A stretch of 64,000 bases of DNA from Escherichia phage vB_EcoP-101114BS3: sequence record MZ234015.1; one strand, given 5' to 3'. The position numbers and the translations under genes are program-made. Of this stretch, positions 3-60,123 are shown one piece after another. The notes under the pieces are model-generated. The model had not been told where the DNA came from. It did no database searches and worked only from the letters and a program-made list of their open reading frames with translations. Numbering within the stretch: the first letter of the stretch is position 1; each line of letters starts with the position of its first letter.

Positions 3-602
3 GAAGATAGGTTAGACCCTGCAAAGAATATTGACATGGGTGCTAGATATTTAAGAGATAACCTGAAAGCTTTTGACGGCGATGTGAGGAAGGCTTTGGT
101 GGGGTATTCAGAAGGGACTGGTGGTGCTAAGCAAATGTTTGCTGGTAAGAAAGGGTTTACACCTCAAGCTTTAGATTCAATGAATAATAAGCTGTTCCTA
201 CCATTCTTTGATAAGAACACAGCAGCGGCACAAGTGGCTAATCCTGTAGGTGCTTTGAAAGCAGTACAGCCTGTGGACCAGTTTGATTCTAATACGCTGA
301 CTAGAGAAGGTGCTGCAAATGCTCCCACTCAAGCAGAGATGGCTGCAAGCAAGGCTGGGGCTTTGGGTGGTCGTCCTGTAGAGTTTTACTCTGATGAACA
401 ACAGTCTGGAGAAGATCAAAAACCTCAACAGAACTTTGGTAATGCTGTGTTGGCAGCTGCTTCTATGCTTGCAGGAAAACAGCCTAACTCTCAAACTGTA
501 CAGAGAGCACACGCCCCTACTCAAGCAGGTTCTCGATATAGTCCACAAACACAAGCTGTGCTGAGACGTCTGTCTAGCATAGGTACTGACATTTACAGAT
601 AA
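3..602 (+). CDS. Virion protein, C-terminal part (5' partial) with lytic transglycosylase (SLT) domain
   Basis: Frame continues from window start; translation contains NIDMGARYLRDNL...ALVGYSEGTGG matching the SLT-domain C-terminal signature (NI..G..YL...AYNAG.G pattern). Confidence 0.7.
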   Translation, partial: EDRLDPAKNIDMGARYLRDNLKAFDGDVRKALVGYSEGTGGAKQMFAGKKGFTPQALDSMNNKLFLPFFDKNTAAAQVANPVGALKAVQPVDQFDSNTLTREGAANAPTQAEMAASKAGALGGRPVEFYSDEQQSGEDQKPQQNFGNAVLAAASMLAGKQPNSQTVQRAHAPTQAGSRYSPQTQAVLRRLSSIGTDIYR

Positions 603-611
603 GGAGGACTT

Positions 612-1664
612 ATGTCTCTTTTCGGTTCTGCTCCTAAATCTAAGACTACGGTAGCTCCGTCTTCTCAGGTTGATGCTCTTCTGAAACAGATTGTAGCAAA
701 TGCTCAGGCTATGAATCAAAACGATCAAGGTTTTATTAATCGTAACATAGCAGGTTTTAATGAAAATCAAACAGCAGCTCTTTCTAATTTAGCAAATTCT
801 AACACACTCAACCAACTCAGTCAGATGTACACCCCTAGAACTCAACAAGGGTTGGACCAGATGAATGAGTTGGCTCAGAAATATCAAAACCTAGTTAATA
901 AGGGTGGTATCTCCGCTCAAGATGTTAATAATTTTAGCTCTGGACTGAATAACTCTGCACTAGCTAAGTCTACAGGTAAAGCTGCTGCTAATATATCTCT
1001 TGGTAATGGCTCTGATTCAGGTTCTCTGAGACGTGCTGCTGCTCAAGGTGCTGCTCTCTCTTCAGCGAATACAAATCTTTCTCGTTCTATTCAAGGTAAG
1101 AATATGGGTGTTAACACTCTTCTGAATAACAACTCCTATCAGCAAGGTTTGCTCAATGCTCAGTCTGGTTTAGCAAATCAGAACCTGAATCTAGGAGCTG
1201 CTGGGGTACAAGCTGGTCAACAGGCAATACATAATCAGCTCACTGCCGGGAATCTTCAACAGCAGCAAGATCAACTCCAAGCTAACAACAATTGGGAGAA
1301 TGCTATTGGCAATCAGCAGTATGGTTGGAATCAGCTTAACAATCAGCTTAATGTATTAAACTCAGTAAGTCCAATGGCTGGGTACACTATTACTAATAGA
1401 GGTGCTGCCCCTAATGCTTCACAACAAATCCTTGGTGCTGGGGTTACTGGTCTTGGTATTGCTGGTCGTCTAGGTGCTTTTACCCCTAACCAGCAAACTA
1501 CTAATGCTTGGAATTCGTACAATGCTTCTGGAGGTCAAGCTGGGATGGCTGGTCCTATGATTGGTGGCTCAAACCTGTCTCAACAGAACGGTCAGAGCAA
1601 CTGGTTATCTACCGCAGGGAGTAATATCTTAGGTGGTGTTCTAGGAGCCTTTGGAGCAAATTAA
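612..1664 (+). CDS. Q/N/A/S-rich low-complexity virion-associated protein (paralog 1)
   Basis: 350-aa ORF with AAGGAGG Shine-Dalgarno just upstream; N-terminus and NQNQ..A(L)SNL motif shared with the next ORF. Confidence 0.7.
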   Translation: MSLFGSAPKSKTTVAPSSQVDALLKQIVANAQAMNQNDQGFINRNIAGFNENQTAALSNLANSNTLNQLSQMYTPRTQQGLDQMNELAQKYQNLVNKGGISAQDVNNFSSGLNNSALAKSTGKAAANISLGNGSDSGSLRRAAAQGAALSSANTNLSRSIQGKNMGVNTLLNNNSYQQGLLNAQSGLANQNLNLGAAGVQAGQQAIHNQLTAGNLQQQQDQLQANNNWENAIGNQQYGWNQLNNQLNVLNSVSPMAGYTITNRGAAPNASQQILGAGVTGLGIAGRLGAFTPNQQTTNAWNSYNASGGQAGMAGPMIGGSNLSQQNGQSNWLSTAGSNILGGVLGAFGAN

Positions 1665-1673
1665 GGAGGAGCT

Positions 1674-2642
1674 ATGGCTTTATTTGGTGGTGGGAGTAGC
1701 AAGACTACTTCTAAAATGACAAGACCTGACTACATTCAATCCTATATTGATCAGTTGGTCAATCAGGTTAATAACACTAGTTCAGGCGATTATGTGTATC
1801 GAGAAAATGTTGGACTTAATCAAAACCAGCAAGAAGCTCTGAATAATCTATCACAATCTGGTGCATTAGGTGCACTTTCTTCTCAGTATATGGATGCTGC
1901 TCAATCTGGCTTAGGTTATCTAGATAATGCATACTCTGGATATAACAACCTGTCTAACTCTGGTCAAATCACTGGGGAACAGATTGGTGCTCTTGCAGGC
2001 CAGCTCTATGACGATGAGGCTGTGCAAGCAGCTATTGCAGCGAATAATGAACAAACCCAACAGAGTTTGGCTAGGAATGCACTTCCTCAAATCTCTCAGC
2101 AGTTTGCTGGTCAGCAAGGTTCTGGTGCACGTATGGCTAAATCTTTTGCTCAGGGTGATGCTCTGAACCAGATGCAGAACACAGCAACTAATATTACTAA
2201 TAGTGCCTATGACTCCGCTCTAACTCAAGCACAGAACATTCTTTCTGGTAATAGACAAACACAAGCATCTGCTTTAGGTGGTTTATCTAACATTGGCTCC
2301 AATCTTGCTAATCTAGGAAACCAAGCTGGTCAGTTATCACAACAGCAAATGATGAATCAGTGGAATGCAGGACTGCAACAGCAGCAACAACAGCAGTCTG
2401 ATTTGAACAATGCTTATGAGAATGCTCAGAATGCTGCTAATTGGGGTTGGCAGGATATTAACAATCAACTAGGTGCTGCCGGGGTTCTTAATGGAGCTTT
2501 AGGGACAACCACAACTACTAAAACATCTGGTGGTAGTGGAGGCTTCCTAGGTGGTGCTGCGAGTGGTGCTGCTGCTGGTTCAGCTTTTGGCCCTTGGGGT
2601 GCTTTAGCTGGCGGTGTTATCGGTGGATTAGCTAGCTCTTAA
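1674..2642 (+). CDS. Q/N-rich virion-associated protein (paralog 2) with Gly-rich C-terminus
   Basis: 322-aa ORF, AAGGAGG SD; similar N-terminus (MALFGGGSSKTT vs MSLFGSAPKSKTT) and W.Q.NNQL motif to 612-1664. Confidence 0.7.
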   Translation: MALFGGGSSKTTSKMTRPDYIQSYIDQLVNQVNNTSSGDYVYRENVGLNQNQQEALNNLSQSGALGALSSQYMDAAQSGLGYLDNAYSGYNNLSNSGQITGEQIGALAGQLYDDEAVQAAIAANNEQTQQSLARNALPQISQQFAGQQGSGARMAKSFAQGDALNQMQNTATNITNSAYDSALTQAQNILSGNRQTQASALGGLSNIGSNLANLGNQAGQLSQQQMMNQWNAGLQQQQQQQSDLNNAYENAQNAANWGWQDINNQLGAAGVLNGALGTTTTTKTSGGSGGFLGGAASGAAAGSAFGPWGALAGGVIGGLASS

Positions 2643-2656
2643 TTAGGAGAATAATT

Positions 2657-4324
2657 ATGCAACAAACTTCTTATGCGTATCTTCGCAGTCAAGACCCAAG
2701 AAATCAGATTTATGGTGTTAAACAAGGGGCCGCTTCGGCCTCTCCATACATGGCAAGACCTGCTTATCCAGCTGCTGATGTTTCTATGTATAACCGGAGA
2801 CCTCCTGCTTCTCCTGTAGGTTTGTCTTCTCTTGTTGCCAATGCTCAAGAAGACCAAGAAGCTATGTTAAATCCGGGATTTAGACAGCGCCTTATGGAAG
2901 CAGAGAATCAAGGAACTCCTACAAGCCTTCAGGGTATTGATATTGGTGAACCAGCTCCTGCTATGAATAACCCAGATCTATCCTCTGATGAGGGTCTACA
3001 AGCTGCTGGGTTGATGCCTAGTGACCCACTTCCTGTTACTCCTCCTCGTAAACCTCTGGAAGAAACAGATAAAGAGTTCTCTCCAGTTCAGGTGGAACAG
3101 GCTCAGAATGTTATTAACACTTTAGCTAATAGTAATCCAGCTCCTGAAGGTATGGCTGGTGCAACTCGTGCTAAAGATCAAGAACGTATTAATAATGATA
3201 TTATGGAAGTAGCTAAAGCTAAAGACCCAGCACAAGCTTGGAATGAGCTTCAGAAGCAACCGTTCTATCAGAAGTCTAGTTTCTACACTGGCTTAATGGG
3301 TGTTGGTCTTTCTATCATGTCAGGTAAATCCCCTATTGAAGCTTTCCAGATTGGTTCTGGCTTAGCTGCTCAGGATGAAACTAAACAACAACTAGAAGCC
3401 AATCGCGATGCTCTGTTAGAACAAGGCTACTCTCAAGATTCAGTTGCTGCTGCAATTGCTTCGGGAGATCCTTCTCTTCTCAAGATGCGTCAGATGAGTC
3501 CTCAGGAGAAAATGGCTCTTGCTGCTCAGGATGAAGAACGTGCCAATCGTGAGTGGGATAGACGTCAACAGATTCAAGAGAATTCGATGCGGGAACGTGC
3601 TGCTGAAACTCGTCGTGCTGCTGAAGAACGTGCTAATGCTCAGTTCGAGAAACAGAAAGAACTTATTGGATATCGTGATCAAGTTAAAGCAGAGCGTGCA
3701 GAGAAAGCTGCTCAGAGCTTTACTTTCAACCCTAAAGAAGTTCGTCTGGCTCAGAATACAGCAGAAGGTACTGTTGCTAAACAGTGGGCAGAAAAAGCAG
3801 GTCTGTTTAATCAGTCTCACAAAGACTTGGATTTAGCTGACAAAGCTATTAAAGATAAGGATTATCAAACTGCTCGTTCTGCTTACATGCAGGCTATCAT
3901 GAACTCCGCAAGGGCAGAAATTGGTGCTAACCGCTCTCTCCAAGCTGATGACTTGGCTCACTTTGCAGAAGACCCGTCAATCTTTGTTAAGGTTGGTAAT
4001 ACTTGGTCCCTTAAAGCAGGCTATCGTCCTTCTGATGCTGCTCTGTCATATGCTCGTAAGCAGGCAACTGTTGGTGCTACTTCCGCTGAGAAAGGTGTGA
4101 AGGATGCTAAGAAAGCAACAATTGAGGCATATATCGGTTCTGGTATGGATAAGAAACGAGCGACAGCTCTTGTCAACCGTGCTATTCCTTCTGCTGGTTT
4201 CTATGACCCATTCGGTACGTTTGAGAGTGAAGCTGAAGCAGCTGTTGGTGGAGATGCTACAAATCCTCGATTAACAGGTGCTCTTTCTTCTTCAGCGGCA
4301 GATACGAGTTGGATGTTCCAGTAA
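2657..4324 (+). CDS. Hypothetical virion protein
   Basis: 555-aa ORF co-directional with neighbours; AGGAGA SD before ATG. Confidence 0.65.
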   Translation: MQQTSYAYLRSQDPRNQIYGVKQGAASASPYMARPAYPAADVSMYNRRPPASPVGLSSLVANAQEDQEAMLNPGFRQRLMEAENQGTPTSLQGIDIGEPAPAMNNPDLSSDEGLQAAGLMPSDPLPVTPPRKPLEETDKEFSPVQVEQAQNVINTLANSNPAPEGMAGATRAKDQERINNDIMEVAKAKDPAQAWNELQKQPFYQKSSFYTGLMGVGLSIMSGKSPIEAFQIGSGLAAQDETKQQLEANRDALLEQGYSQDSVAAAIASGDPSLLKMRQMSPQEKMALAAQDEERANREWDRRQQIQENSMRERAAETRRAAEERANAQFEKQKELIGYRDQVKAERAEKAAQSFTFNPKEVRLAQNTAEGTVAKQWAEKAGLFNQSHKDLDLADKAIKDKDYQTARSAYMQAIMNSARAEIGANRSLQADDLAHFAEDPSIFVKVGNTWSLKAGYRPSDAALSYARKQATVGATSAEKGVKDAKKATIEAYIGSGMDKKRATALVNRAIPSAGFYDPFGTFESEAEAAVGGDATNPRLTGALSSSAADTSWMFQ

Positions 4325-4349
4325 TCTAAGACCTAAGTCCTATCTCTTA

Positions 4350-4360
4350 TAATGTATATA
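4350..4360 (+). promoter_or_regulatory. TAATGTATATA motif, candidate phage promoter element
   Basis: TTATAATGTATATAGG lies ~45 nt upstream of ATG 4395; the same core recurs at 63122 (+) and 13480-13469 (-) at comparable distances from start codons. Confidence 0.35.
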
Positions 4361-4394
4361 GGAGGTAGGACATTTTTATTTATAAGGAGACGTT

Positions 4395-7300
4395 ATGGCT
4401 AATTTAAAATCGTGGGAAGAAGCTTCCAAAGCTCCTGCGTATCTGAACGCCTCTCCAGAGCAACAGGCTCAAATGAGAGAACAATACAAGGCAGCAGGGG
4501 GCACTATTCCTGAGACTCAACCACAAGAGCAACCACAACAAGAAGAACGAGGTGCTATTGGGGAGTTTGCTCAAGGTGTGTCTAACGCTCTTCAATCAGG
4601 TGGTGCTAACATTGCAGCTAGTGCTGCTAAAGGTTTAGGTGGGCTGGTAGAGATTGGTGAAAACTTAACTGGTTCGGAAACAAGCTATGGTAAGCGCATT
4701 CAAGAGAACTCTAAACAGTTGCTGGAAGAACGCTTATCTAAGATAGAAGATGGTTTTGGTAAAACAGCTGGTCAGTATGCTGGTGTTGCTGCTGATATTG
4801 GTTTGACAGTTGCAAACCCTGCTGTTGCTGCTGCTGTTATCGCAGCTCGTGAAACAGGTCGTGCTTATGCTGATCAAACTCCTAAAGAAGATGAAGATAA
4901 ATCAGTCTTAGATGCTGCTCTTGTTGGTGGTGCTAACTACGCTGCTCAGAAGATCCTTCCGGGCATGACTGGTACAGCTTCTACTACTCTTGGTCGTGTA
5001 GGACAAAGCGTAGCCTCTAACGCAGTTGCTGGTGCTAAGGGTGGTGCTATTGTTGGTGCTGCTGAAGCTCAGAACAAATATGGGGATGACACTACTCTAG
5101 CTAACGTATTAGAAGGGGCTATTGAAGAGGGTGCACTCGGTGCTGCTTATGGTGGGGCGATTGGTGGGGTTCATGGGTTAATAAGCCGTCCTAGCCCTCA
5201 AGTGTTTGATCGTACTCCTGAGCATGTTAAGACTGACATTGCTGCTGAAGATGAGGCTATTCGTAAAGCTGCTAACGCTGATGAACTTCGTGAAGCCTAT
5301 GCTAAAGCTGAGAATGCTAATGCTGCCTCTGCTTTAAACCTTCTGGATGAAAATGGTTTCCGAATCACAGATGCAGTTGCTATGGACTCTCCTGCTGTTC
5401 AGCGTATATTAAATACAGACCAAAGTCGTGCAGAGAAAGCTGCTACGGTTCAGAAAGATAGCTCTAATGTTCCCGGTCTCAATCCTCTCGCTTCTCCTAA
5501 GAAGACTCAAGGTAAAGCTTTTGCTGACAATGAGTACAACCAGAAACAAGCTGTGGCAATGAAAGATGCAATGGCTGACTACACTAAAGATAACACCAAA
5601 GCCCTTACTGATGTTCTAGACAACCTAGACCGAGAGTTAGTAGCTCTGAGAGCAAGTGGTGATTTTACTGGTAGTGCTATTGACATTAAAAACCGTACTC
5701 AAGCTGATCGTGATTTTATTGATGCTTATAAAACTTTTTACAGTGAAGCTAATCGTTTCAAAGCTCGTGATGGTGAAGACCTAAACAACTTCATTGATAA
5801 AGCTACTCAGTTGCAGAAGCTATCTGAAAATGTTTCTCCAGAAATGAAGAAGGCCATTGGTGGATTAAAGAAACTAAAAGGTATGCCTGAAGGTTTTAAC
5901 CCTATCCAAGATGCTTTCACTCTGAATAATACAGCTAAGTTCATGAGTAACCAAGACCGTGGTTGGACCTCTCTGACTGATGACGGTTTTCGTGAAGCTC
6001 CGGCTCCTGTGTTAGTTAAGAATCCTCTCGGTGCAGCCAAGTATGTACTTAACCGCTTTACTTCCGATCGTGCTCGTGCTCAACGTGAGAAGCAACAGTC
6101 AGCTAATAGTGAAGCTATCCGCTCTTTGGCTAGGGCTGATTTAGAAGTACAACGAGCTAGGACTCAGGCTGAAGAAGCAAGAGCAAAAATGGAAGAAGAA
6201 CCAACCACAGAAGACATCAAATTCCGTACTCAAAATGATGCACCTTCCGAACCGGTTCGTGAGGAGCCTTCTGCTACTACTGTGACGGAAGAAATTCCGT
6301 CCTCTCCAGCTCCAACTGAAACACCTCTTACTGCGAGGGATTTGGTTGCTCAAAGACGTGCTCTCCAACAAGCAGAGCTTAGACGTCAAGAAGCTGAAGC
6401 TGCTCAGGCTCAAGAAAGTGCTACACCAGAACCTGAACCACAGCAAGAAGCTCTTACAGCTAGAGAATTAGTAGCTCAGCGTAGGGCTGTAGCAGAGGCT
6501 AAGAAACGTCAAGAGGCAGAAGAAGCAGAACGTGCTAAAGAAGCTCCTGAGGAAGCCGTAGAAGAGCCTAAAGAGAAACCTGAGCCATTACCTGCTCGTG
6601 CTCCTAAAGCTCCTGAGAAGGCTCCTGAGCCTGTTAAACCGTCACTTGGTGTAGAGCGTCTAGCTTCTATGTCAACTGCTGCTCGTCAAGCAACGAAAGA
6701 CCGTGCTGATCGATTTGCTCGTTCTTTGTATTCGGCTGCTGCTAAAGCTAAAGCCACTGCGGAAAATTTCCTTTCTTACAAGGGAGATCCTAAAGAGCTT
6801 ATGCGTCGTATCCGTCAGGAAGACCAAGCAAACAACACACAGCGTCATGAAGAGATGGCTAGAAACCAACTAGCTTCACAGCAAGGCATTGCTTCTGCTA
6901 AATCTCAACATGTTCGTGCTTCTTTTGCTGATTGGGTGAAAGAACGTGGGTTGCCTTCTGATATTGCTACTAAGGCTTTACGGGCTGAAGAGAAAGGTTT
7001 AGGTGGGAACGTCACAAGTCTAGATTCACTGAAGCGAAGAGCTGAGCGTTTATATCAGAAACAAAGAGATGATGAGTTTGACCGTCTCTATCGAGAGGCT
7101 CTGGAAGAGAATAAAGCTTTTGATAAGAGAGATGCTCCTAAACTGGTAGACCAGAAGAAAGAGCTTCAGGATGAAATTGGTGCGTTGCTTGATGCTGAAC
7201 CGTTACGTCCTGCTCAGAAAGATGCTATGCGTAGGATTATGGAAGACTTCGTGGAGAGTAAGTTTAAATCTTCAGAGAAAGCTGGAAGGGTTGAGGCTTT

Positions 7301-8840
7301 GGAAGTTGGTCAGATGAAGGATGTGTGGGATGGGTTTATTAATACCTATAACCGAGAAGTTAACATGTTCAACAAGGCTAACAAGAATTCTCAATACGAA
7401 GCAGCAGCTAAACACTTGCAAGCACGTCAAGAACGTCTTGAGACGCTCCGTAACAGAGCTAAAGCTCGCAGTGATGCTAAGGCAGCCATGGAGGCTGAGA
7501 AGCAGTCCTTGGAGGCTATAGCGGCTCAGAAATCAGAGATAGAGAAGATGTTCAAAGAATTGCCTGAAAGTGTCAGAGAGGCTCAGGAAGGGCGTACTTT
7601 GAAACAGCTTGCTGCTCACCATGATAAGAACTCTCCAGTACCACCAGAGCGTTTCCGTAGTATCATTGAACGTATTCACAACGCTGAGAGTGATTACCTC
7701 GATCGCAAACGTCGTTTGACCGAAGCAGAGGAAGATGCTCGTGAAGCTAAGTGGAATAGGATGTATGAACAGGCTGAGGAAATGAACCGTAAGTTTGATA
7801 TCGATGCTAGAGTGAAGAGAGATAAGGCTCTGAAGGAAGCTCAAGAACGAGAGAATGACTTAATGGCAGTTCAACGTCAGCGTGACGACATTCATAAGCG
7901 TTTGGTCAATACTCTGGAAGAGAAGGGAGTTTCTAGAGAAGATGCTGAAGCATATGCTGGGTCTTATATGGATAATCGGTATGCTTTGTTAGAGAAACCA
8001 ATGACTCCAGTGGAACATCAGAATGCTCGTGCTCGTATCGAATCTGACGTAGAGAAGTTTGTTAAGAAATACGAAACAGCTACTCCAATCGAAAGAGAGA
8101 TTGCTAAAGCAACTGGTGATGCAGATGGGAAACCTTCTGACTTAGATGCAGAAACATTAAAAGCTATCGAAGATGCTCGTAAAGTTGATTCCGATTTTAA
8201 GAAACTCTTAGATGAAGAGAAGGAAATGGAGAAGATTCGTTCAGCTCTACCTGAAGATGAAAGATCTCAGGCGAACTCTGATATTCTGGAAAGTATTAAG
8301 AAACAGGAAGATGATTTTGCTAGCAAAGCAGAGAAAGCTTTTATTGAAGGGAAGGACTTGCAGGAGTTAGCGAGTGTTGCAGAAGTTCTAGATAGGGTTC
8401 ATGGTGCAGACAAGGCTGGTAACAACCGTCGATTTGTACGTGCTCTACAGACTGCTGCCGAGAACAAGAAACGTTATGGGGATAATCCAGTGGCTTGGTT
8501 TAGTGCTGATGATTACTCTGCTATTGCGAAACTTGGTGCTGCTTCGGCAGGTGGTAACAAATCTCGAGCACTTGAGAAAATCTTTGGTTCTACAGCAGAA
8601 CAAGCTAAAGGGAAACTTTTAGGGCGGGATGATGTAGCTAAGATTAGACGTGTGATTGAAGCGAATCCCAATGTTAAGATTCCTTCTTACAAGACAACTA
8701 CTCGACAAGAGTACATGCAGTTCTTGGAGAAGTATAATGACGAGGGAGAGTTGAAAGTCAAACGTGGTTCTCTGTCTGACAAGTTGGAGAGAGGTAAGCG
8801 TCAAGCTAAACTCCGTGTTAGAGTTCGAGCTAAGGAGTAA
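4395..8840 (+). CDS. Large (1481 aa) Ala/Glu/Lys-rich coiled-coil protein, putative internal virion/ejection protein
   Basis: Long uninterrupted ORF with AAGGAGA SD; Gly/Ala-rich N-terminal region, charged helical repeats (TAR[DE]LVAQRRA occurs twice); function inferred from size and position only. Confidence 0.8.
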   Translation: MANLKSWEEASKAPAYLNASPEQQAQMREQYKAAGGTIPETQPQEQPQQEERGAIGEFAQGVSNALQSGGANIAASAAKGLGGLVEIGENLTGSETSYGKRIQENSKQLLEERLSKIEDGFGKTAGQYAGVAADIGLTVANPAVAAAVIAARETGRAYADQTPKEDEDKSVLDAALVGGANYAAQKILPGMTGTASTTLGRVGQSVASNAVAGAKGGAIVGAAEAQNKYGDDTTLANVLEGAIEEGALGAAYGGAIGGVHGLISRPSPQVFDRTPEHVKTDIAAEDEAIRKAANADELREAYAKAENANAASALNLLDENGFRITDAVAMDSPAVQRILNTDQSRAEKAATVQKDSSNVPGLNPLASPKKTQGKAFADNEYNQKQAVAMKDAMADYTKDNTKALTDVLDNLDRELVALRASGDFTGSAIDIKNRTQADRDFIDAYKTFYSEANRFKARDGEDLNNFIDKATQLQKLSENVSPEMKKAIGGLKKLKGMPEGFNPIQDAFTLNNTAKFMSNQDRGWTSLTDDGFREAPAPVLVKNPLGAAKYVLNRFTSDRARAQREKQQSANSEAIRSLARADLEVQRARTQAEEARAKMEEEPTTEDIKFRTQNDAPSEPVREEPSATTVTEEIPSSPAPTETPLTARDLVAQRRALQQAELRRQEAEAAQAQESATPEPEPQQEALTARELVAQRRAVAEAKKRQEAEEAERAKEAPEEAVEEPKEKPEPLPARAPKAPEKAPEPVKPSLGVERLASMSTAARQATKDRADRFARSLYSAAAKAKATAENFLSYKGDPKELMRRIRQEDQANNTQRHEEMARNQLASQQGIASAKSQHVRASFADWVKERGLPSDIATKALRAEEKGLGGNVTSLDSLKRRAERLYQKQRDDEFDRLYREALEENKAFDKRDAPKLVDQKKELQDEIGALLDAEPLRPAQKDAMRRIMEDFVESKFKSSEKAGRVEALEVGQMKDVWDGFINTYNREVNMFNKANKNSQYEAAAKHLQARQERLETLRNRAKARSDAKAAMEAEKQSLEAIAAQKSEIEKMFKELPESVREAQEGRTLKQLAAHHDKNSPVPPERFRSIIERIHNAESDYLDRKRRLTEAEEDAREAKWNRMYEQAEEMNRKFDIDARVKRDKALKEAQERENDLMAVQRQRDDIHKRLVNTLEEKGVSREDAEAYAGSYMDNRYALLEKPMTPVEHQNARARIESDVEKFVKKYETATPIEREIAKATGDADGKPSDLDAETLKAIEDARKVDSDFKKLLDEEKEMEKIRSALPEDERSQANSDILESIKKQEDDFASKAEKAFIEGKDLQELASVAEVLDRVHGADKAGNNRRFVRALQTAAENKKRYGDNPVAWFSADDYSAIAKLGAASAGGNKSRALEKIFGSTAEQAKGKLLGRDDVAKIRRVIEANPNVKIPSYKTTTRQEYMQFLEKYNDEGELKVKRGSLSDKLERGKRQAKLRVRVRAKE

Positions 8841-8847
8841 ACAAGAA

Positions 8848-8890
8848 AAGCCCCCAACCTGTAAAAAGGAAGGGGGCTTCTTTATTTCTA
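8848..8890. terminator. Bidirectional intrinsic terminator-like hairpin between convergent genes
   Basis: AAGCCCCC...GGGGGCTT 8-bp GC stem with 16-nt loop followed by T-rich run, placed between the plus gene ending 8840 and the minus gene ending 8958. Confidence 0.5.
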
Positions 8891-8957
8891 GATGTTAGAA
8901 TCCATCAAATTCATCATACATCCCAATTTTCTTCTTCAAAGTCAATCATAAAACCTC

Positions 8958-9257
8958 CTAGATTAAATCGTAATACTTAATAATATCAGAGAGCTTAAAC
9001 TCTCTAATGTCATTCTTGTCATTATCCCAAGCAGTCATTATCCAACAAGGTTTGCCCCCATTATGATAAGGGGAAGAAGCAACTGAGGTTCGTATAGGAA
9101 TAACGGAGCGGTCTGCAATCTCGCCTCTCCAATTACGATAGCTAAAGCGAAGAATTTGTTTCGTAGATACTTGATCATTTGTGCTTTCCTTGTTCATTGA
9201 TTCAAAGACTTCTTTTTCTTCAGGAGTCTCTAGATTTTTTAAATTCACGTCTTGCAT
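8958..9257 (-). CDS. Hypothetical protein
   Basis: C-terminal part of ORF 8958-9380; internal ATG at 9257 is preceded by AGAGGAA SD; the longer ORF starts at TTG and overlaps the HNH gene. Confidence 0.45.
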   Translation of the reverse strand: MQDVNLKNLETPEEKEVFESMNKESTNDQVSTKQILRFSYRNWRGEIADRSVIPIRTSVASSPYHNGGKPCWIMTAWDNDKNDIREFKLSDIIKYYDLI

Positions 9258-9624
9258 CGTTTTCCTCTTTAGTTTTAATCTTATGGCATGGTTCTTTACA
9301 TAAGACCTGAAAGCCATCTTTCTCAACCAAAGCTCTCTCAATAATCTCATCCCAAGTAGCTTCATGGTCCACTGGAACAATAGGCTCGATGTGGTCGACA
9401 GCCACCTCTTTCAGAGGAGAGTCATTACCGCACATGGCACACTTGTAGTGCATTGCCAGCTTGCCAGTCTTAGGATTGATTTTACGTTCTGTCTGAGCTT
9501 CTTTGAGAGCATCAAACATAGGCTTCCACTTTCTAGTCAGAGAACGAATCCCTGACTTAATGAAGGAGTTGTAACGTGCTTCAGTCCACTGATTTGAACA
9601 TCTTGTCTTCTCAGCCTTCGCCAT
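9220..9624 (-). CDS. HNH endonuclease
   Basis: CAMCG...DHIEP...CKEPCH motifs (Cys pairs flanking the His-Asn-His core). Confidence 0.85.
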   Translation of the reverse strand: MAKAEKTRCSNQWTEARYNSFIKSGIRSLTRKWKPMFDALKEAQTERKINPKTGKLAMHYKCAMCGNDSPLKEVAVDHIEPIVPVDHEATWDEIIERALVEKDGFQVLCKEPCHKIKTKEENDARREFKKSRDS

Positions 9625-9802
9625 AACCTACATCCATATCAGCGTCTTCCCAAATGCGTTTATTGACTCGGTGTGATTCTTTATCAGCACGAGGGATACG
9701 ACCTGTGCGACGATCAAATGCTTGGTGCTTAATCTTTTGATCTTTACGAGATTCACGAGTAGAGAAGTTTTCATCATACGAACGATAGTCAAATTTACCC
9801 AT
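9611..9802 (-). CDS. Small basic hypothetical protein
   Basis: 63-aa ORF in operon context; no recognisable domain. Confidence 0.4.
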   Translation of the reverse strand: MGKFDYRSYDENFSTRESRKDQKIKHQAFDRRTGRIPRADKESHRVNKRIWEDADMDVGYGEG

Positions 9803-9812
9803 TATAATATCC

Positions 9813-10661
9813 TTATTCCCAAGTTTTATCTAACCATGACCAATCAAAGAGGTCACCTTCAGCTTGTCCAACGAAGAGCAATCGAGCGTTTTCTAACATC
9901 TTATCTTCTGCTTCTTCCTCGAACCTCTTATAGTATTCCATTCGTATAATATGATAAAGAGTCCACTTATCGAATACCTTCTCAATAAGTTTGATTGCAG
10001 CCTTGCTACCAATGCCTTTACGGCGCATAACCAAGTTGCCACCCCACATCATTTCAACCTTCTCACCACAACCGGGAATATTATCTGTATTATCCCCAAT
10101 CAACATTTGGTAGAAGAAATTCTGCCATGCTACTTCTTCTGATACATAATGAGGAGGTACTTCTTTCTGTCTTTCTCCACAAGCCCAACGATAATGCCAT
10201 CCGGGAGTGATTAACAAATCTTTATCACGAGTACAGATAATCGTATTCTTATCTCGTCTCTGTCTTTCAGCTAGGGCATCATCTGCCTCTCTCCCAAAGA
10301 CTTCTACATACTCGTAATTTTCTTTAATATAATCACTAACGTTCTGCCAGTGGTGGGGTCTTTCTCCCGGTGGGCGATTAGCTTTGTAGCCTTGCTGTTT
10401 AGCAATGTTAAATCGAAAGTTACCACCTTCACTGAAGTAAAAGATTGTTTTCTCACAACCTGACCTTGCAATGATTACATCAATTTTGTGTTGAAGTCGT
10501 TCAATCAAGAATCCATAATCAACTGGAACACGACCTGTGTCTAGAAAAGGATGCTCTTGTGTAAGAGCACCGACTTCATATCGCAGAACATCTGCATCCA
10601 CAATTGCTACTTCAGGATAGATTACATCAGACATAGAGTTCTCTCCGTGTCCGTACAACAA
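9813..10661 (-). CDS. 5'-3' exonuclease / flap endonuclease (FEN-like)
   Basis: Acidic PIN-like N-terminal region and H3TH-type GIGSKAAIKLIEK motif. Confidence 0.8.
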   Translation of the reverse strand: MLYGHGENSMSDVIYPEVAIVDADVLRYEVGALTQEHPFLDTGRVPVDYGFLIERLQHKIDVIIARSGCEKTIFYFSEGGNFRFNIAKQQGYKANRPPGERPHHWQNVSDYIKENYEYVEVFGREADDALAERQRRDKNTIICTRDKDLLITPGWHYRWACGERQKEVPPHYVSEEVAWQNFFYQMLIGDNTDNIPGCGEKVEMMWGGNLVMRRKGIGSKAAIKLIEKVFDKWTLYHIIRMEYYKRFEEEAEDKMLENARLLFVGQAEGDLFDWSWLDKTWE

Positions 10662-11223
10662 TCCAGTTTAAATAATCTACTGCATCTTCTACAGTAGAAT
10701 TATTCGCTAGGTAGTATGTATTTCTCTGACTACCTTCAATGTAGGAACGAGAATCTCCTTTAAAATCACAACCTTCACGAATCACCTGAATTACCTGAAC
10801 ATGGAAATGTTTCTCTAGTTCTTCAACTTCGGCTTTGAACCCACCATCAGAGAAGACGATAACATCATTCTGTGATGGGATACGTTGTTGAATACTGCTA
10901 ACAGCAAGTTTACCCATGCAGGTCTCACCAAACATAGGCTTCAGGTAATTCTCGCTAGTTGCAATCATCAAGTCTCGAACTGACTTACCGTCCCATTCAG
11001 GACGGCTATGTTCTTTCCACTCACGATCGTTGTACAGCTCCATGAACTCATAAAGAGGTAGACCTAATGCAGCAGCAGCCACTCGATACATAGGCTCCTT
11101 AAAAGCCTTTACATGAGGCCTAAACTCGGTGTTACCAAGTGTTTTCTCTAACCAAGAATTAGCGATTGTATCTTTACCACAACCCGGTGGTCCATTCAGA
11201 ATTACTACTAATGGTTTACTCAT
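10627..11223 (-). CDS. Deoxynucleoside monophosphate kinase (P-loop)
   Basis: N-terminal Walker A LNGPPGCGKDT typical of phage dNMP kinases. Confidence 0.7.
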   Translation of the reverse strand: MSKPLVVILNGPPGCGKDTIANSWLEKTLGNTEFRPHVKAFKEPMYRVAAAALGLPLYEFMELYNDREWKEHSRPEWDGKSVRDLMIATSENYLKPMFGETCMGKLAVSSIQQRIPSQNDVIVFSDGGFKAEVEELEKHFHVQVIQVIREGCDFKGDSRSYIEGSQRNTYYLANNSTVEDAVDYLNWIVVRTRRELYV

Positions 11224-11873
11224 TATTGAATCATCCCTTGAAGATCTTCTTTATCAAAGTGCTTCTCTACTACCGCTTCATACAGATCACGATTCTCTGA
11301 ATAACGACGATAGAAGGTTCCGTGTGAAATTCCCAACTCTTGCTGGATGTGATCATGTGGGATGCCGAGAAAGAGCATTGAGAACATGCTTGCCATCTTA
11401 CGGTTTTCCATAATGTCACTCAGGTCTTGGAAGAAGAAAAAGATTCTAGATTCCAAGAACGGGTCTCCAGTAGAATCATGCTTATCCATCGCAATCTCTA
11501 AAGGACTTTCCCATGAATTCATCTCAGGAGGTCTAAACATATCAGCCTCTGGAATAGAGTAGATACGTCGGTCTCCAACTGTCTGGCGATTAGAACGAAT
11601 CGACCAGATGATATTCTTGACACGATAAGTCATGTGCTCAATATCTTTTTCATCAGTGAGCAGAAGTTCTTCTTGCTTTGCAAACACAAAACGCCAAGCG
11701 TTCAGTAATACTTCCTGAGCAACATCCTCTGCCTCGTGATAGTCTTTAATGTCATACATAAAATACTTATGCACAACTTTCCAATTCTCTCGATAGAATT
11801 CATCGAAGGTTGGGTAGTACTTAATAGGTATGCCATGAATACGATAGCGTGTGGGTGTTGTCTTTTTCTTCAT
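11223..11873 (-). CDS. Sigma-70-family RNA polymerase sigma factor (phage-encoded)
   Basis: Region-2-like [17 protein letters not shown] and region-4-like [18 protein letters not shown]. Confidence 0.75.
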
Positions 11874-11897
11874 AAGTCATCCTTAACTTACTTTACA

Positions 11898-12122
11898 TTA
11901 AACTACACAGAATAAATACATTGCTGTTTCAGGGGAAGGTATGTGGTCACTAGGATATCTAACCCTAATCCACTCATCATCTTCTGCTACATAATAAGCC
12001 CAATAAGACCCATTTTCATTAATAAAGAACTTGAAGGTACAACCAAAGATTTGGTTATTGTGTTCCCATACTGCATGAAACTGAGTAACACCTTCTGGTA
12101 TTGTAAGTTCCGCTCTGATCAT
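11898..12122 (-). CDS. Hypothetical protein
   Basis: 74-aa ORF in operon context. Confidence 0.5.
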   Translation of the reverse strand: MIRAELTIPEGVTQFHAVWEHNNQIFGCTFKFFINENGSYWAYYVAEDDEWIRVRYPSDHIPSPETAMYLFCVV

Positions 12123-12670: not shown

Positions 12671-13411
12671 TTAGAAAGGGCTGTCATCTTCTTCAAAGGT
12701 AGACTGCGGCTCTTCGTTAATAGTAGGGATACTTGGAGTAGCATCTTTCTGTTCAGTATCAGAAGCTTTAGTAACTTCACGACCAGCCAGAGGGATGTTC
12801 TTAGCATCATTAGCTTGGGTCAGAAGATTACGTTGGAATGGGAAGATTGCTTGATAAGCAGCCAAGTTAGCATCAGTCTCAGCATACGGTTCGAAGAAGA
12901 TCAACTCACTACGAGGGGCACCTACAGCATCACGATATTTGGTAGGGATTGGAGTGATACTCTTAATGGAGTTTTTCTTCTCACCAGCTTTGTTTACATA
13001 GGAATTAACCAGAATGTTAACAGGCTGACCTAGCAGCATATCTTTAAACCAACCCAAATCACCTTTCAGTGCTTGAACACTTGGGTCGATCATTTTAATC
13101 AGATTCAGAATACCAGAGTTCTTAGCTCGTGGGTTTACGTCGAAAGTTTTAAACTGGCAAGCAGGACGAGGGTCCAGAGGTTTGCCTTCATTATCAGTCC
13201 CTGTTGCATCTACGCCAATCAGCTCAAAAGCTAAGTCCATACGGAAAGCTGGGTTCTTAGGGGTAACTGCTTTGGTCTTAGGGTCAATCCAAGGGTCACG
13301 ATTGTGAACACCTAAACCTACAACACGAACAATACGTGCTTCGTACTCACCATCAGGGATTACATCGTAGTTGGATTTACGGGATACAGACAGTTCAGGG
13401 ATCATAGACAT
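12671..13411 (-). CDS. Single-stranded DNA-binding protein
   Basis: Acidic C-terminal tail ending EEDDSPF (SSB-type tail with terminal Phe); replication-module context. Confidence 0.65.
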   Translation of the reverse strand: MSMIPELSVSRKSNYDVIPDGEYEARIVRVVGLGVHNRDPWIDPKTKAVTPKNPAFRMDLAFELIGVDATGTDNEGKPLDPRPACQFKTFDVNPRAKNSGILNLIKMIDPSVQALKGDLGWFKDMLLGQPVNILVNSYVNKAGEKKNSIKSITPIPTKYRDAVGAPRSELIFFEPYAETDANLAAYQAIFPFQRNLLTQANDAKNIPLAGREVTKASDTEQKDATPSIPTINEEPQSTFEEDDSPF

Positions 13412-13468
13412 ATTAATATTTCCTTATATAAATTTAAGATTGTTGCTCTCTTTGAGCGGTTTGTATAC

Positions 13469-13480
13469 TATATACATTAC
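13469..13480 (-). promoter_or_regulatory. TAATGTATATA motif (minus-strand copy) upstream of the SSB gene
   Basis: Minus-sense GTAATGTATATAG about 60-70 nt upstream of the SSB start codon. Confidence 0.35.
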
Positions 13481-13540
13481 ACTTATACAGATAAGGTTCT
13501 ATTATACTATAACCTTTTTGGTAGTAGATAATGACAAGTA

Positions 13541-13552
13541 GTAATGTATATA
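13541..13552 (+). promoter_or_regulatory. TAATGTATATA motif (plus-strand copy) in the same intergenic region
   Basis: GTAATGTATATATGG on the plus strand pointing into a ~270-bp region with no ORF. Confidence 0.3.
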
Positions 13553-13825
13553 TGGTATAGCTAGTAAAGCTATTGCAGGCTTGTATATTGGGCAATCATT
13601 GTAACCCTTGCAAGTACCGAAGGGCAGGAGACACCTGCGAGATAAAATAGAGAATTAAGGAAATCCTTGATTTAGGTTGTAGGGACTCCTAGGGACTTTG
13701 ATTCTCTATTTAAAAGAATATTAATTACTTACTACCTAAATAATTAACTAACTTACTTAAACCAAACTCAAGAATAATAGATAAAAAGATTATTCCTAAG
13801 AAAGCTAAAAAGTAAAGGATATAAG

Positions 13826-14446
13826 TTACCATTCAAGTAAACCTTTAAAGTTAGTTTGTTCTACTATCCTCTGATAAGGTAAGTTAGATTCTGCTTGTTT
13901 GCTTAACACCTCTTGTACTTTATCAGTAATTGAATAATCTTTTTGTAATAAAGAAGCTACCCACTCTTTCCTACTTTCCAGTTCTTTTCTAATCTCTTGC
14001 AGAGACACAGCTCTGTAATCAATTTGTTCCATAGAAGTACAGAAGTATCTCCAATCTCTGATAGTAGAATTATGAGTATGAGCATAGATATTATACTTTC
14101 CTCTCATTTCATCAGAGTGAATAGGAATATGAGTTACCCAAAACTCTTTGTACTTATAATCACCACTGATGTGTCTAAAGACTTTCATCATATCAGGGAG
14201 AAGTTCTAATCTGTCATGGTTTCCTAAGACAAGATGTTTCTCTCCTTTTACTTCAGCGATAATATCAAGTGCATATTTCTCAAACACCCAATCACCTGTA
14301 AAGAAAGTTTTATCACGTTTAGTAACATGGTCAAACGCTGCTAAGATAGCTTTGTCGTGTTCTTCAATACTACTAAACTTCTTCCTAAAGTTACAGATGT
14401 TACGATGGCCTAGGTGACCATCACCTGCAAAATAAACTTCAGCCAT
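13826..14446 (-). CDS. Calcineurin-like metallophosphoesterase (Ser/Thr phosphatase-like)
   Basis: GDGHLGH (GDxHG), LGNHD (GNHD) and later His motifs. Confidence 0.8.
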   Translation of the reverse strand: MAEVYFAGDGHLGHRNICNFRKKFSSIEEHDKAILAAFDHVTKRDKTFFTGDWVFEKYALDIIAEVKGEKHLVLGNHDRLELLPDMMKVFRHISGDYKYKEFWVTHIPIHSDEMRGKYNIYAHTHNSTIRDWRYFCTSMEQIDYRAVSLQEIRKELESRKEWVASLLQKDYSITDKVQEVLSKQAESNLPYQRIVEQTNFKGLLEW

Positions 14447-19973: not shown

Positions 19974-20039
19974 GTTTCGCCTTATCGGTCATCATAACTC
20001 CTTAATATATCAGTGTACACTAAGGAGTATACATTATGT

Positions 20040-24617: not shown

Positions 24618-24669
24618 ACAATATTCTTATACTGTATATACATTTGAGAGTTATCATATCTACTACCAA

Positions 24670-30949: not shown

Positions 30950-31135
30950 TTATTCTACTTCGAAGTGTTTGATCACACCAGTCAGTACATCAGATTGGAA
31001 TGTACCCACTAGCTCTGTACCTCGGAAAAAGTTAACACTTGTTCCAAGTGATTCAAAGCGATCTGCTTGAATGTCCAGAGATTGAATATTTCCTTCTGCT
31101 GACATTGTACGAAACATGATTGTGTATTTATTCAC
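30950..31135 (-). CDS. Hypothetical protein
   Basis: 61-aa ORF. Confidence 0.4.
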   Translation of the reverse strand: MNKYTIMFRTMSAEGNIQSLDIQADRFESLGTSVNFFRGTELVGTFQSDVLTGVIKHFEVE

Positions 31136-31374
31136 AGACTCGTTACTCCCTTATCTGCTTGTGCAATTGCGATGATACGCTCAGCACATTCCATTGAATA
31201 CTTATCACCTCGTTTGAGGAAGGTGATGATTGCAGAGAACTGATTACCAATCATTCTCTTATTTGTGATACCAAACTCTTCACAGAGTTGGTTGATAGCT
31301 TTACGAGAGCCTACAATCAGAGGCTCTTTTTCTTCGGTCATTCCACGGCTGATCAAATCTTCGATAGACAACAT
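31132..31374 (-). CDS. Hypothetical protein
   Basis: 80-aa ORF with start/stop overlap to its neighbour. Confidence 0.45.
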   Translation of the reverse strand: MLSIEDLISRGMTEEKEPLIVGSRKAINQLCEEFGITNKRMIGNQFSAIITFLKRGDKYSMECAERIIAIAQADKGVTSL

Positions 31375-54180: not shown

Positions 54181-54265
54181 ACGGGTGGGATATTACTGGT
54201 TAGATATACATGGGTAAATAATGCATGTGTAATATCAATGGGTAGGGTATTTATGGGTAGGGATA
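54181..54265 (+). repeat. ATGGGT(A/G)-type direct-repeat cluster II
   Basis: ACGGGTGGGATA, CATGGGTAAATA, AATGGGTAGGGTAT, TATGGGTAGGGATA in 85 bp. Confidence 0.55.
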
Positions 54266-54453
54266 CCACTGGTAGCAGGTAGGGCAAGGCTTAGAGCTTA
54301 AAGGCTGATTGATTTCCTAAAGGCAATTGCATTGGTAATAACCCTTTTTTAAATGAGGACTCCCCCTTTTTAGGAAACGCGCTCGGAGAGGCTAGGTCCA
54401 TCCGGTCAAATTGAAATTTTAAACTGTTATATATAAGCATAAGGAATAACTTA

Positions 54454-54618
54454 ATGTGGAAATTGAAGATGATTATTCGTCAGATCAAATGTCAACATGA
54501 ATACTACCCGATACGAATATCAAGAGGTGATGAACGATTACACGCTTATTACAAGAGTACATGGAGATGTGCAGACTGTGGTAAGGTGAGGAATAGTAAA
54601 TGGGTGGATAGGCCTTAA
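54454..54618 (+). CDS. Unlisted small zinc-ribbon protein (54 aa)
   Basis: ATG at 54454 preceded by AAGGAA; translation MWKLKMIIRQIKCQHEYYPIRISRGDERLHAYYKSTWRCADCGKVRNSKWVDRP with C..H ... C..C pairs. Confidence 0.4.
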   Translation: MWKLKMIIRQIKCQHEYYPIRISRGDERLHAYYKSTWRCADCGKVRNSKWVDRP

Positions 54619-54740
54619 CATGACATGGCCTTTATGGGTATGCCTTAATGTGGGGTAGCCTTTATGAAGTCCCCTTTACTTCAGCGTACATGGGTTTATA
54701 CATGGGTGGGCCTTTAGATGAGTACGCCTTTATGGGTTGA
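54598..54740 (+). repeat. ATGGGT(A/G/T)-type direct-repeat cluster III with GCCTTTA/GCCTTAA words
   Basis: AAATGGGTGGATAGGCC, TATGGGTATGCC, AATGTGGGGTAGCC, CATGGGTTTATA, CATGGGTGGGCC, TATGGGTTGA in ~140 bp directly upstream of the first gene of the head module. Confidence 0.55.
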
Positions 54741-54769
54741 TCACTCTCGTTTATCAGAGGAGAACAAAT

Positions 54770-55018
54770 ATGTTTCTAGACTTTTTATCAGAGGTACTTC
54801 CCTACTTCCGCACTGAGAAATGTGCATTTGTATTTGATGAAGGGGAGGAGTCAATGACTTGTTTGGGTAGATTAGTAGACCTAGACGATGATGAAGATTT
54901 TGATGCTACGATGGACATTAGTTCATTGGGCTGGTTGTACATGAGATGCTTTGTAAGTTACAAGGCTGAAACGTTTAAAGATTATCGCTATAGCGCTGAA
55001 GGAGAGAATGATGAATAA
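54770..55018 (+). CDS. Hypothetical protein (first gene of head-module operon)
   Basis: ATG at 54770 preceded by GAGGAG; the ORF track extends to a TTG at 54737. Confidence 0.5.
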   Translation: MFLDFLSEVLPYFRTEKCAFVFDEGEESMTCLGRLVDLDDDEDFDATMDISSLGWLYMRCFVSYKAETFKDYRYSAEGENDE

Positions 55019-55664
55019 TATGACAGGAACTAATACACTGAATGCAATCTATGAGAACATGGGATGTAAAGGCGAGGTTGCTTACAATGGCTCACTCCGT
55101 CCTTTATCAGAGGACACTTTCTATCTGAATCGTGTTCATGAAACTACTGGAGGTAAATCCCGAGTTGAGATGGTAAAACAACTGGCTCATGGTTCTGTGT
55201 ACGGTTATGCTCCTTCAACCCGTGAAATATGGGAAGGTTTGATTCCTCGTACAGAAGCTAAAGATGTGAAAGACTATTTCACTGTAGCAAAAGAAGTTAA
55301 ACGTAAGTGTCCATCCAATTTAGAAGTTGTTCCGTATGTAGCTGACAAACATGCACACCTACCGGACTATGCCCGTGAGATGATTGAGATGATTGAAGAA
55401 GCCGAGTATGAAGCTCTGAATAATTATTTAAATTCAAAAGATCAATGGTCACGTAATGTAGTAATTGATGAAGAAGGTAATGAAGTTGTAACGTGGGTGC
55501 ATGTTAGTGAACAAGCTCTGGACCCCGAGCTTGAAGAATACAAAAAATTTTTGGCGTCCTCTTCTTTTGAGGTAGAGAATGACAAATCTATTCCAGTTGG
55601 CTGGGAAGGTGAAACTGTAGCTCTCCAGACTTTGTTCAACCTACACGTAGGTGATGTAGATTAA
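55008..55664 (+). CDS. Hypothetical protein
   Basis: 218-aa ORF overlapping the previous stop (ATGA-type coupling). Confidence 0.6.
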   Translation: MMNNMTGTNTLNAIYENMGCKGEVAYNGSLRPLSEDTFYLNRVHETTGGKSRVEMVKQLAHGSVYGYAPSTREIWEGLIPRTEAKDVKDYFTVAKEVKRKCPSNLEVVPYVADKHAHLPDYAREMIEMIEEAEYEALNNYLNSKDQWSRNVVIDEEGNEVVTWVHVSEQALDPELEEYKKFLASSSFEVENDKSIPVGWEGETVALQTLFNLHVGDVD

Positions 55665-55675
55665 TAAAAGGCGTT

Positions 55676-55700
55676 GCCTCCTCTCGTGGGAGGCTTTTTG
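55676..55700 (+). terminator. Terminator-like hairpin with T5
   Basis: GCCTCC-TCTCGTG-GGAGGC then TTTTT; followed by TTATAATG, so possibly an attenuator/terminator-promoter pair. Confidence 0.5.
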
Positions 55701-55729
55701 TTATAATGATAATGTAGAAGGAGTATAAG

Positions 55730-56197: not shown

Positions 56198-56263
56198 TAG
56201 GAATAGAGGGGAGGGTTCTTTTCGCGAGGGATCTCTCCCTTTTTTATTTTATTGGAGGAATAT

Positions 56264-60114: not shown

Positions 60115-60123
60115 GGATACTGA

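Follow-up and report, generated by a model that had tools for sequence, protein, structure and literature searches.

We consider it very likely that the sigma factor encoded in the window (the whole stretch of 64,000 nucleotides of Escherichia phage vB_EcoP-101114BS3 analysed here), an ortholog of phiEco32 gp36, replaces sigma70 on the host core RNA polymerase (RNAP) and reads middle and late promoters of the form tAATGTAtA, assisted by a homolog of phiEco32 gp79. That this motif is a promoter of the phage sigma factor is already known, as it has been established experimentally and structurally for the ortholog. The preliminary description of this DNA had drawn the same link between sigma factor and motif by inference; the link is borne out by the experiments on gp36, and six sites syntenic with phiEco32 promoters are found in the window. 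Our own results concern homology, residue conservation, motif enrichment, the synteny of the six sites and the presence of a gp79 homolog. For RNAP binding, for the use of the promoters and their start sites, and for the structure we rely on published phiEco32 experiments, and we infer by analogy that the window phage behaves like phiEco32 in its use of sigma factor and promoters.

The phage is a phiEco32-like podovirus of the genus Suseptimavirus within the Gordonclarkvirinae. A 6-kb stretch around the sigma gene is 100% identical to Escherichia phage vB_EcoP-101114UKE3 (MZ234017 / NC_070982.1) and shows 80-96% identity to about 100 phiEco32-like coliphages. Window positions 1-54200 correspond to positions 21548-75747 of the record NC_070982.1/MZ234017, and positions 54201-64000 to 56-9855 of the same record; the window therefore crosses the record ends. 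The annotated gene order agrees with that of phiEco32. The annotated gene products also include a polymerase of family A and a primase-helicase, both T7-like.

Two genes are central to the proposed system:

11223-11873, minus strand: sigma factor gene, ortholog of phiEco32 gp36 (ORF of 216 aa, 80% identity, PQC43_gp034)
31132-31374, minus strand: gp79 homolog (PQC43_gp083; 76% identity over 80 aa, E 2e-47; PHROG 8339 at 1e-48)

The ORF which had been described at 11223-11873 is present, with the strand and length given above, and is labelled 'hypothetical protein' in the RefSeq record. Its product is 80% identical to phiEco32 gp36 over 215 aa (E 6e-135), matches chain F of PDB 9m7y, which is phiEco32 gp36 (E 9.7e-118), and is matched over residues 1-215 by PHROG 1740 'RNA polymerase sigma factor' at 1e-43. 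By these sequence matches the window protein is a gp36-type sigma factor of PHROG 1740. The generic sigma models stay below their thresholds: Pfam Sigma70_r2 reaches 19.1 bits with a cut-off of 24 bits, NCBIfam TIGR02937 (sigma70-ECF) 20.6 bits with a cut-off of 42.9, and the region 4 models in Pfam (Sigma70_r4/r4_2) give zero matches to the protein, the Pfam search finding only weak helix-turn-helix matches at residues 148-201. The sigma assignment therefore depends on the homology with a single characterised protein, and the earlier statement that regions 2 and 4 are recognisable is half true at the sequence level, region 2 being sub-threshold and region 4 unmatched. On the level of the fold, the resemblance of gp36 to sigma2 and sigma4 is known from the cryo-EM structure of the ortholog (PMC12276001).

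The same structure names the residues through which gp36 contacts RNAP and promoter (Xu et al. 2025, PMC12276001). D44, E47, E49, D50 and E54 form an acidic interface with the clamp helices; E79, H80, Y83, R84, W90, S91, S94 and N95 read the -10 element; Y186 and R187 read the -35 region; and M138, I142, F166, L167 and F204 line the groove for the flap-tip helix. All 13 clamp and -10 contact residues are identical in the window sigma with unchanged numbering. Compared with phiEco32 gp36, the window protein has a 2-residue insertion in the linker, and Y186/R187 correspond to Y188/R189, both conserved, which makes 15 of 15 identical residues for the clamp, -10 and -35 contacts. Four out of five groove residues are identical as well, the exception being M138, which is replaced by L140.

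The 98 phage records in which a full-length gp36-type sigma factor was found belong exclusively to Escherichia or Shigella phages of the phiEco32 group, whereas in the Salmonella and Cronobacter relatives the match is confined to the region 2 part. The partner of gp36, gp79, also has a homolog in the same genome as the window sigma, likewise labelled 'hypothetical protein' in the phage's records. In phiEco32, gp79 is an inhibitor of the sigma70 holoenzyme and a co-activator of the gp36 holoenzyme (PMC12276001).

Experiments on phiEco32 have located six gp36-dependent promoters, the late ones upstream of genes 6, 13 and 26 and the middle ones upstream of genes 40, 58 and 68. They share the consensus tAATGTAtA, and transcription starts 6-8 nt downstream (PMC8948821, PMC4281155, PMC4331800). 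We take this list from the SU10 paper and from subsequent publications of the same group, which summarise the primary mapping (Pavlova 2012). In vitro, the gp36 holoenzyme has been shown to transcribe from P26. The 9-mers of Table S3 are TAATGTAgA for P6, TAATGTATA for P13, P26, P40 and P58, and aAATGTATA for P68 (PMC8948821). At the syntenic positions of the window all six published 9-mers are present, identical between the two phages:

4350-4358, plus strand: P26 homolog, predicted late promoter (exact TAATGTATA; 30 nt from transcription start site (TSS) to the start codon of the 1481-aa gene; phiEco32 26014 is the syntenic position)
63122-63130, plus strand: P13 homolog, predicted late promoter (TAATGTATA; P13 is listed in Table S3 of PMC8948821)
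55710-55718, plus strand: P6 homolog, predicted late promoter (TAATGTAGA; 9-mer and context as at phiEco32 1677)
13471-13479, minus strand: P40 homolog, predicted middle promoter (TAATGTATA; predicted TSS 13464; invariant in 18 of 18 relatives)
20028-20036, minus strand: P58 homolog, predicted middle promoter (exact TAATGTATA; 29 nt from TSS to the ATG of gp057; predicted TSS 20021)
24637-24645, minus strand: P68 homolog, predicted middle promoter (AAATGTATA; predicted TSS 24630)

The motif is strongly enriched in the window. Exact copies of the 10-mer TAATGTATAT lie at 4350-4359 (+), 13470-13479 (-), 13542-13551 (+) and 63122-63131 (+); these four copies compare with 0.14 expected, and none of 100 dinucleotide-preserving shuffles contained at least four. 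The 9-mer TAATGTATA occurs five times (0.63 expected), a number matched in 0 of 100 shuffles. The four motif positions of the preliminary description are thus all exact, and so are its distances to start codons, namely 45 nt to the ATG at 4395 (1481-aa gene), 42 nt to the ATG at 63164 and 68 nt to the ATG at 13411. Its promoter list, however, was incomplete, comprising three of the six syntenic sites; the P58, P68 and P6 homologs were absent from it.

Not every related sequence was accepted as a promoter. Three matches on the minus strand to the degenerate form WAATGTAKA (27274, 36313 and 45102) were rejected, being intragenic, unconserved in phiEco32 and set against 3.2 expected by chance. 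Two AATGTA cores at 11894-11899 and 11917-11922 (both -) were considered as a promoter for autoregulation of the sigma gene and likewise discarded: they lack the T/A after the core and have no phiEco32 counterpart, and for the core at 11894-11899 the G at -34 also counts against it.

With -11 set on the G of the motif, the predicted 5' UTRs are 27-53 nt long at five of the six promoters. The predicted TSS are 4365 for the P26 homolog and 63137 for the P13 homolog, whose upstream element follows an intrinsic-terminator-like hairpin. The P6 homolog is the exception: its predicted TSS (55725) is only 5 nt ahead of the ATG at 55730 and downstream of the Shine-Dalgarno sequence, which fits poorly with simple expression of its gene. 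For the P58 homolog the downstream sequence is identical to that at phiEco32 42937. A transcript from the P40 homolog would, if a terminator is absent, cover gp038, the spanin gene and also the sigma gene. With this promoter upstream of its own gene, the sigma factor probably reinforces its expression.

How such promoters are read is known from the cryo-EM structure of RNAP-gp36-gp79 on P68. The N-terminal domain of gp36 reads AATGTA at -14 to -9, and the bubble opens at -11G, the first single-stranded base, which is held by E79 and H80; gp36 consists of this domain, a linker and a C-terminal domain and has no sigma3 domain (PMC12276001). Upstream, R187 and Y186 contact -37G and -34A in the P68 open complex (PMC12276001). 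The preliminary description had assumed little -35 contact. This agrees with an older view of gp36 promoters (PMC8948821), which summaries of the older literature treat as single-element promoters, but was overturned by the 2025 structure and mutagenesis, according to which the contacts of R187 with -37G and of Y186 with the T opposite -34A are required (PMC12276001). In our data -34 is an A in all seven window sites (the six listed above and one at 13542-13550) and in 14 of 14 sites across window phage and phiEco32, and -37 is a purine in 13 of these 14.

Further upstream similarity is restricted to pairs of sites. The P13 and P26 homologs have TAAGACCTA in common at one fixed spacing (-38 to -30; 63099-63107 and 4327-4335, respectively), and the P68 homolog (24657-24668) shares TGGTAGTAGATA with the 13542-13550 site, again at one fixed spacing (-38 to -27). 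These shared elements suggest that sequence in the -35 region may help to separate promoter classes. The upstream sequences (-38 to -30) of phiEco32 P40 and P58 differ from those of their window homologs.

One could also explain the motif sites as host sigma70 promoters, with an extended -10 or nnTAAT hexamers, in which the phage sigma plays no specific part. The motif of the P26 homolog does overlap a perfect TATAAT (cttaTAATgtata), four other motif sites have 5/6 matches to the -10 hexamer (TGTAAT, GATAAT, CATAAT), and the SU10 genome paper suggests that middle promoters might serve both holoenzymes. Nevertheless we regard this explanation as highly improbable overall, although some of the sites might be read by sigma70. 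The best -35 hexamers at the motif sites match in just 3-4 of 6 positions, and a sigma70 consensus scan passed over both sites in 13300-13900. The TGnTATATA-like extended -10 seen in the motif earlier is not there, as in TAATGTATATA the TG directly adjoins TATATA and the spacer base required for an extended -10 is missing. Moreover, the phiEco32 promoters were defined with the gp36 holoenzyme, gp36 reads AATGTA in the structure (PMC12276001, PMC8948821), and gp79 turns off sigma70 transcription when the middle and late genes are expressed (PMC12276001). Reading of the TG by a sigma region 3.0 is not supported either, since its G is the -11 position in the ortholog complex and gp36 lacks the sigma3 domain.

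In the scheme which we propose instead, the window protein would act as a highly diverged two-domain sigma factor that takes the place of sigma70 on the host RNAP core. Its sigma2-like N-terminal domain would bind the clamp helices, read AATGTA from -14 to -9 and unwind the DNA from -11G, and its sigma4-like C-terminal domain would sit on the flap-tip helix and touch positions around -37 and -34. The gp79 homolog would displace region 4 of sigma70, by which host and early transcription would be shut off, and would in addition stabilise the C-terminal domain of the gp36-type sigma. The three minus-strand sites (13471-13479, 20028-20036, 24637-24645) would then serve as middle promoters and the three plus-strand sites (55710-55718, 63122-63130, 4350-4358) as late promoters.

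The remaining copy of the motif lies within the replication gene block, on the plus strand, whereas all genes of this block lie on the minus strand. It is followed by a conserved non-coding stretch:

13519-13550, plus strand: candidate seventh gp36-type promoter (TGGTAGTAGATA at 13519-13530, i.e. -38 to -27, a spacer, and TAATGTATA at 13542-13550)
13557-13716, plus strand: conserved non-coding stretch following the seventh site, about 160 nt long and a candidate for a structured RNA (fold and conservation)

The preliminary description had rightly noted this fourth copy, given there as 13541-13552, but had overlooked that no gene lies downstream of it. The predicted TSS is A13557, and the site is divergent from the P40 homolog with the predicted starts 93 bp apart. 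Exact copies of the 12-mer TGGTAGTAGATA exist in the window only at the P68 homolog and at this site, with equal spacing to the motif. An alignment of 18 phages from several genera shows it unchanged in all 18, and it is kept in phiEco32 at 36704; among five further metagenome or viral contigs of the same phage group it is kept in four. Enlarging the set of relatives barely widened the diversity: a search with the gene-40 homolog yielded five loci, a scan of viral contigs for ATCCTTGATTTAGGTTG six, and a metagenome scan for CCTGCGAGA-N15-30-CCTTGATTTAGG seven matches, two of them by chance. It is probable that the seventh site is a gp36 promoter.

This site is not among the six promoters given in the later papers that summarise the primary mapping, including Table S3 of PMC8948821. 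Published motif searches scanned intergenic regions solely on the strand in gene direction, a restriction that would account for its omission. For SU7, which is 99.8% identical and has annotated regulatory features, the record lists only sigma70-style predicted promoters, none of them on the plus strand in this region.

Tentatively, and with somewhat less than even confidence, we propose that the seventh gp36-dependent promoter drives a structured non-coding RNA of about 160-190 nt (13557-13716) which is conserved across the sampled Gordonclarkvirinae. The stretch 13557-13716 contains no ORF of at least 40 aa and no ATG, and its sole ORF with a TTG start, 25 aa long, is unconserved. On the plus strand its fold energy is -45.4 kcal/mol (z -2.7), on the minus strand -35.7 kcal/mol (z -1.9). 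In the predicted fold a central module is flanked by a 5' hairpin (13558-13572) and by a long 3' hairpin (13645-13711); the module exists in a short and a long version, both with the same three-domain fold. The 5' hairpin starts at the predicted +1 and shows compensatory changes at two of its five pairs (C-G, U-A and A-U at one, U-A and G-C at another) as well as G-U pairs in four of 11 sequences, the latter fitting an RNA of the plus strand. Covariation was judged for this hairpin only, as the remainder of the candidate RNA does not vary and so gives no information on pairing, the block 13618-13715 being almost invariant across genera. Rfam searches of both strands of 13300-14000 gave no match at E values up to 1. 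Comparison of 13520-13720 with complete E. coli genomes found no similarity, so that at the DNA level the region neither copies nor mimics a host element. A literature search, partly with a loose query, found no relevant transcriptome, ncRNA or origin reports for the phage group.

Two other readings of this region have to be considered. The seventh site might be a by-product that is not used as a promoter: it could have arisen by inverted duplication of P40, or it could be a palindrome to which a protein binds. In that case the block 13618-13715 would act on the minus strand, for instance by terminating transcription between gene 41 and P40. The motifs of P40 and the seventh site are indeed the two arms of a perfect 12-nt inverted repeat, 60 nt apart; on the minus strand TTTTATCTC (TTTTTATCTC in most relatives) comes after the long stem, and the site reads AATATA in the fifth of the additional contigs (L030). 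An inverted copy of P40 would, however, lack the P68-type 12-mer which the seventh site possesses at the exact spacing. Site and upstream element also persist in myPSH1131 and one IMG/VR contig despite an insertion of about 120 nt between them and P40. As the G-U pairs of the 5' hairpin would be C-A mismatches on the minus strand, and the scan for canonical terminators near the candidate RNA found none on either strand, we judge this reading unlikely.

Alternatively, the seventh site could work as a gp36 promoter whose transcript primes or activates replication at a T7-like origin and is not a stable RNA. Its position inside the replication block of a phage with a T7-like polymerase and primase-helicase would suit such a role. 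The conserved block is followed by an AT-rich stretch (13700-13799), which at 20% GC exceeds any other 100 nt nearby in AT content, and TAGGGACT is repeated in tandem at 13680-13697, in the manner of an iteron pair. Yet the AT-rich part is unconserved among the relatives, where it occurs in three versions, no skew inflection was seen at the site at 2-kb resolution, and the compensatory changes and G-U pairs suggest that the 5' hairpin is under selection as RNA. An origin function of this kind thus seems distinctly improbable.

If the seventh promoter does drive a structured non-coding RNA, the phiEco32 group would gain its first described non-coding transcript, be it a regulatory RNA or a replication primer. 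Should the seventh site fire, the gp36 regulon would include a conserved non-coding transcript, and an RNA or origin component would have gone unrecognised in a system which already serves as a structural model and has been proposed for synthetic biology. There is also a gain for annotation: the sigma gene and the gp79 homolog are labelled as hypothetical and the gp36 promoters are unannotated, gaps which can be filled by transfer from phiEco32. Such a transfer also yields early, middle and late gene classes for a phage group relevant to therapy.

Comparison with other sigma systems places the window phage next to phiEco32. Salmonella phage 7-11, a related podovirus with an elongated head, likewise encodes a sigma factor (SaPh711_gp47) and has promoters at similar genome positions (PMC8948821). 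However, SaPh711_gp47 is only about 15% identical to gp36, with a tblastn match limited to residues of about 2-62, and the late promoters of phage 7-11 are bipartite (GTAAtg-(16)-aCTA), unlike tAATGTAtA; this phage has neither a gp79 homolog nor a middle class (PMC8948821).

Group 4 (ECF) bacterial sigma factors resemble the gp36 type in having sigma2-like and sigma4-like domains on a linker, but gp36 differs by a rotated first helix and by a shorter helix 4 in the C-terminal domain (PMC12276001). The best generic matches of the window sigma are ECF models, far under the family cut-offs. In place of the AAC...CGT-type bipartite promoter of this group we find tAATGTAtA together with a weak R(-37)nnA(-34), and no anti-sigma factor is found among the annotated product names in the window region.

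The T4 proteins gp55 and AsiA/MotA likewise redirect the host RNAP to a short AT-rich element near -10. For gp55, the late sigma factor, this element is TATAAATA; gp55 needs gp33 and the sliding clamp and is not known to make a -35 contact, and MotA is an activator, not a sigma factor. No sequence relationship is known between these T4 proteins and the gp36 system. The analogy between AsiA/MotA and gp79, a small protein which disables region 4 of sigma70 and co-activates phage promoters, has been drawn before (PMC12276001).

The closest known system is that of phiEco32 itself, with gp36, tAATGTAtA and gp79 (Savalia 2008; Pavlova 2012; Xu 2025, PDB 9m7y). Although phiEco32 is a member of the genus Kuravirus and the window phage of Suseptimavirus, both have a common genome layout, and the window phage possesses the sigma ortholog as well as the gp79 homolog.

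Besides the sites syntenic with the six published phiEco32 promoters of the sigma factor gp36, the window carries a further copy of the motif, which is absent from the published six-promoter lists:

13519-13716, + strand: seventh TAATGTATA site with its upstream element, and downstream stretch

The neighbouring genes all lie on the opposite strand, and the site is oriented into 160 nt of non-coding, structured and conserved sequence. It shows no variation in 18 of 18 relatives and shares TGGTAGTAGATA at -38..-27, relative to the predicted start, with the homolog of the middle promoter P68. Two late promoters have an upstream element as well:

4327-4335 and 63099-63107, + strand: TAAGACCTA of the P26 and P13 homologs, respectively, exactly at -38..-30

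These two late promoters have TAAGACCTA in common at this position, also in phiEco32, while the 12-mer common to the P68 homolog and the seventh site differs from it at the same spacing. Because the two pairs carry different elements at one spacing, there are hints that the -35-region elements of gp36-type promoters are class-specific. According to older papers these promoters are single-element.

At the position of the seventh site, a metagenome contig (L030, ERZ1034915) has TATAATATATATA in place of TATAATGTATATA, a G-to-A change at the predicted -11. Either the seventh promoter was lost naturally here, or the base change is an assembly artefact.

Two features lie on the other strand in this region:

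13434-13595, - strand: PQC43_gp039, a RefSeq CDS of 53 aa with a TTG start
13420-13463, - strand: 5' UTR of gp038 (homolog of gene 40), with the + strand sequence AAGATTGTTGCTCTCTTTGAGCGGTT

PQC43_gp039 spans both divergent promoters (the P40 homolog and the seventh site) plus the intervening spacer, and is probably a spurious call. In SU7, a close relative 99.8% identical in this interval, no CDS is annotated there, nor is one found across the interval in the annotation of most other relatives retrieved. The gp038 leader shows almost no variation among 18 relatives, and an autoregulatory role is conceivable. The protein belongs to PHROG 6599, which has no assigned function; its C-terminal end is an acidic FEEDDSPF tail resembling that of SSB proteins, and its counterpart in one relative's record is labelled ssDNA-binding protein.

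Within and next to the conserved non-coding stretch the following features were found:

13575-13617: central part, with homologous positions in the relatives' loci L007, L009, L015 and L019
13680-13697, + strand: tandem TAGGGACT repeat with 10-nt spacing, inside the conserved block
13724-13740: imperfect match to the TGGTAGTAGATA element in inverted orientation

The central part exists in two unrelated versions of ~43 nt and ~70 nt, the longer of which has its own hairpin (TCTCTCA...TGAGAGA). Their patchy distribution among relatives suggests module exchange. Five relatives lack one G of the TAGGGACT repeat in both copies together.

Two features elsewhere in the window can be compared directly with phiEco32:

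55710-55730, + strand: P6 homolog and annotated ATG, predicted start 55725
43941-44016, - strand: single tRNA-Arg (anticodon TCT), early region

The predicted start at the P6 homolog lies only 5 nt 5' of the ATG, and the GAAGGAG Shine-Dalgarno of this gene is upstream of it. This leaves a nearly leaderless mRNA or a promoter that serves genes further downstream; the layout at phiEco32 1677-1697 is identical. At window 54200/54201 the linear GenBank record is joined end to end (record 75747 to record 56, the first 55 nt being left out), and the window was therefore taken from a circularised or re-started genome version. phiEco32 likewise has a single tRNA-Arg (TCT) in its early region.
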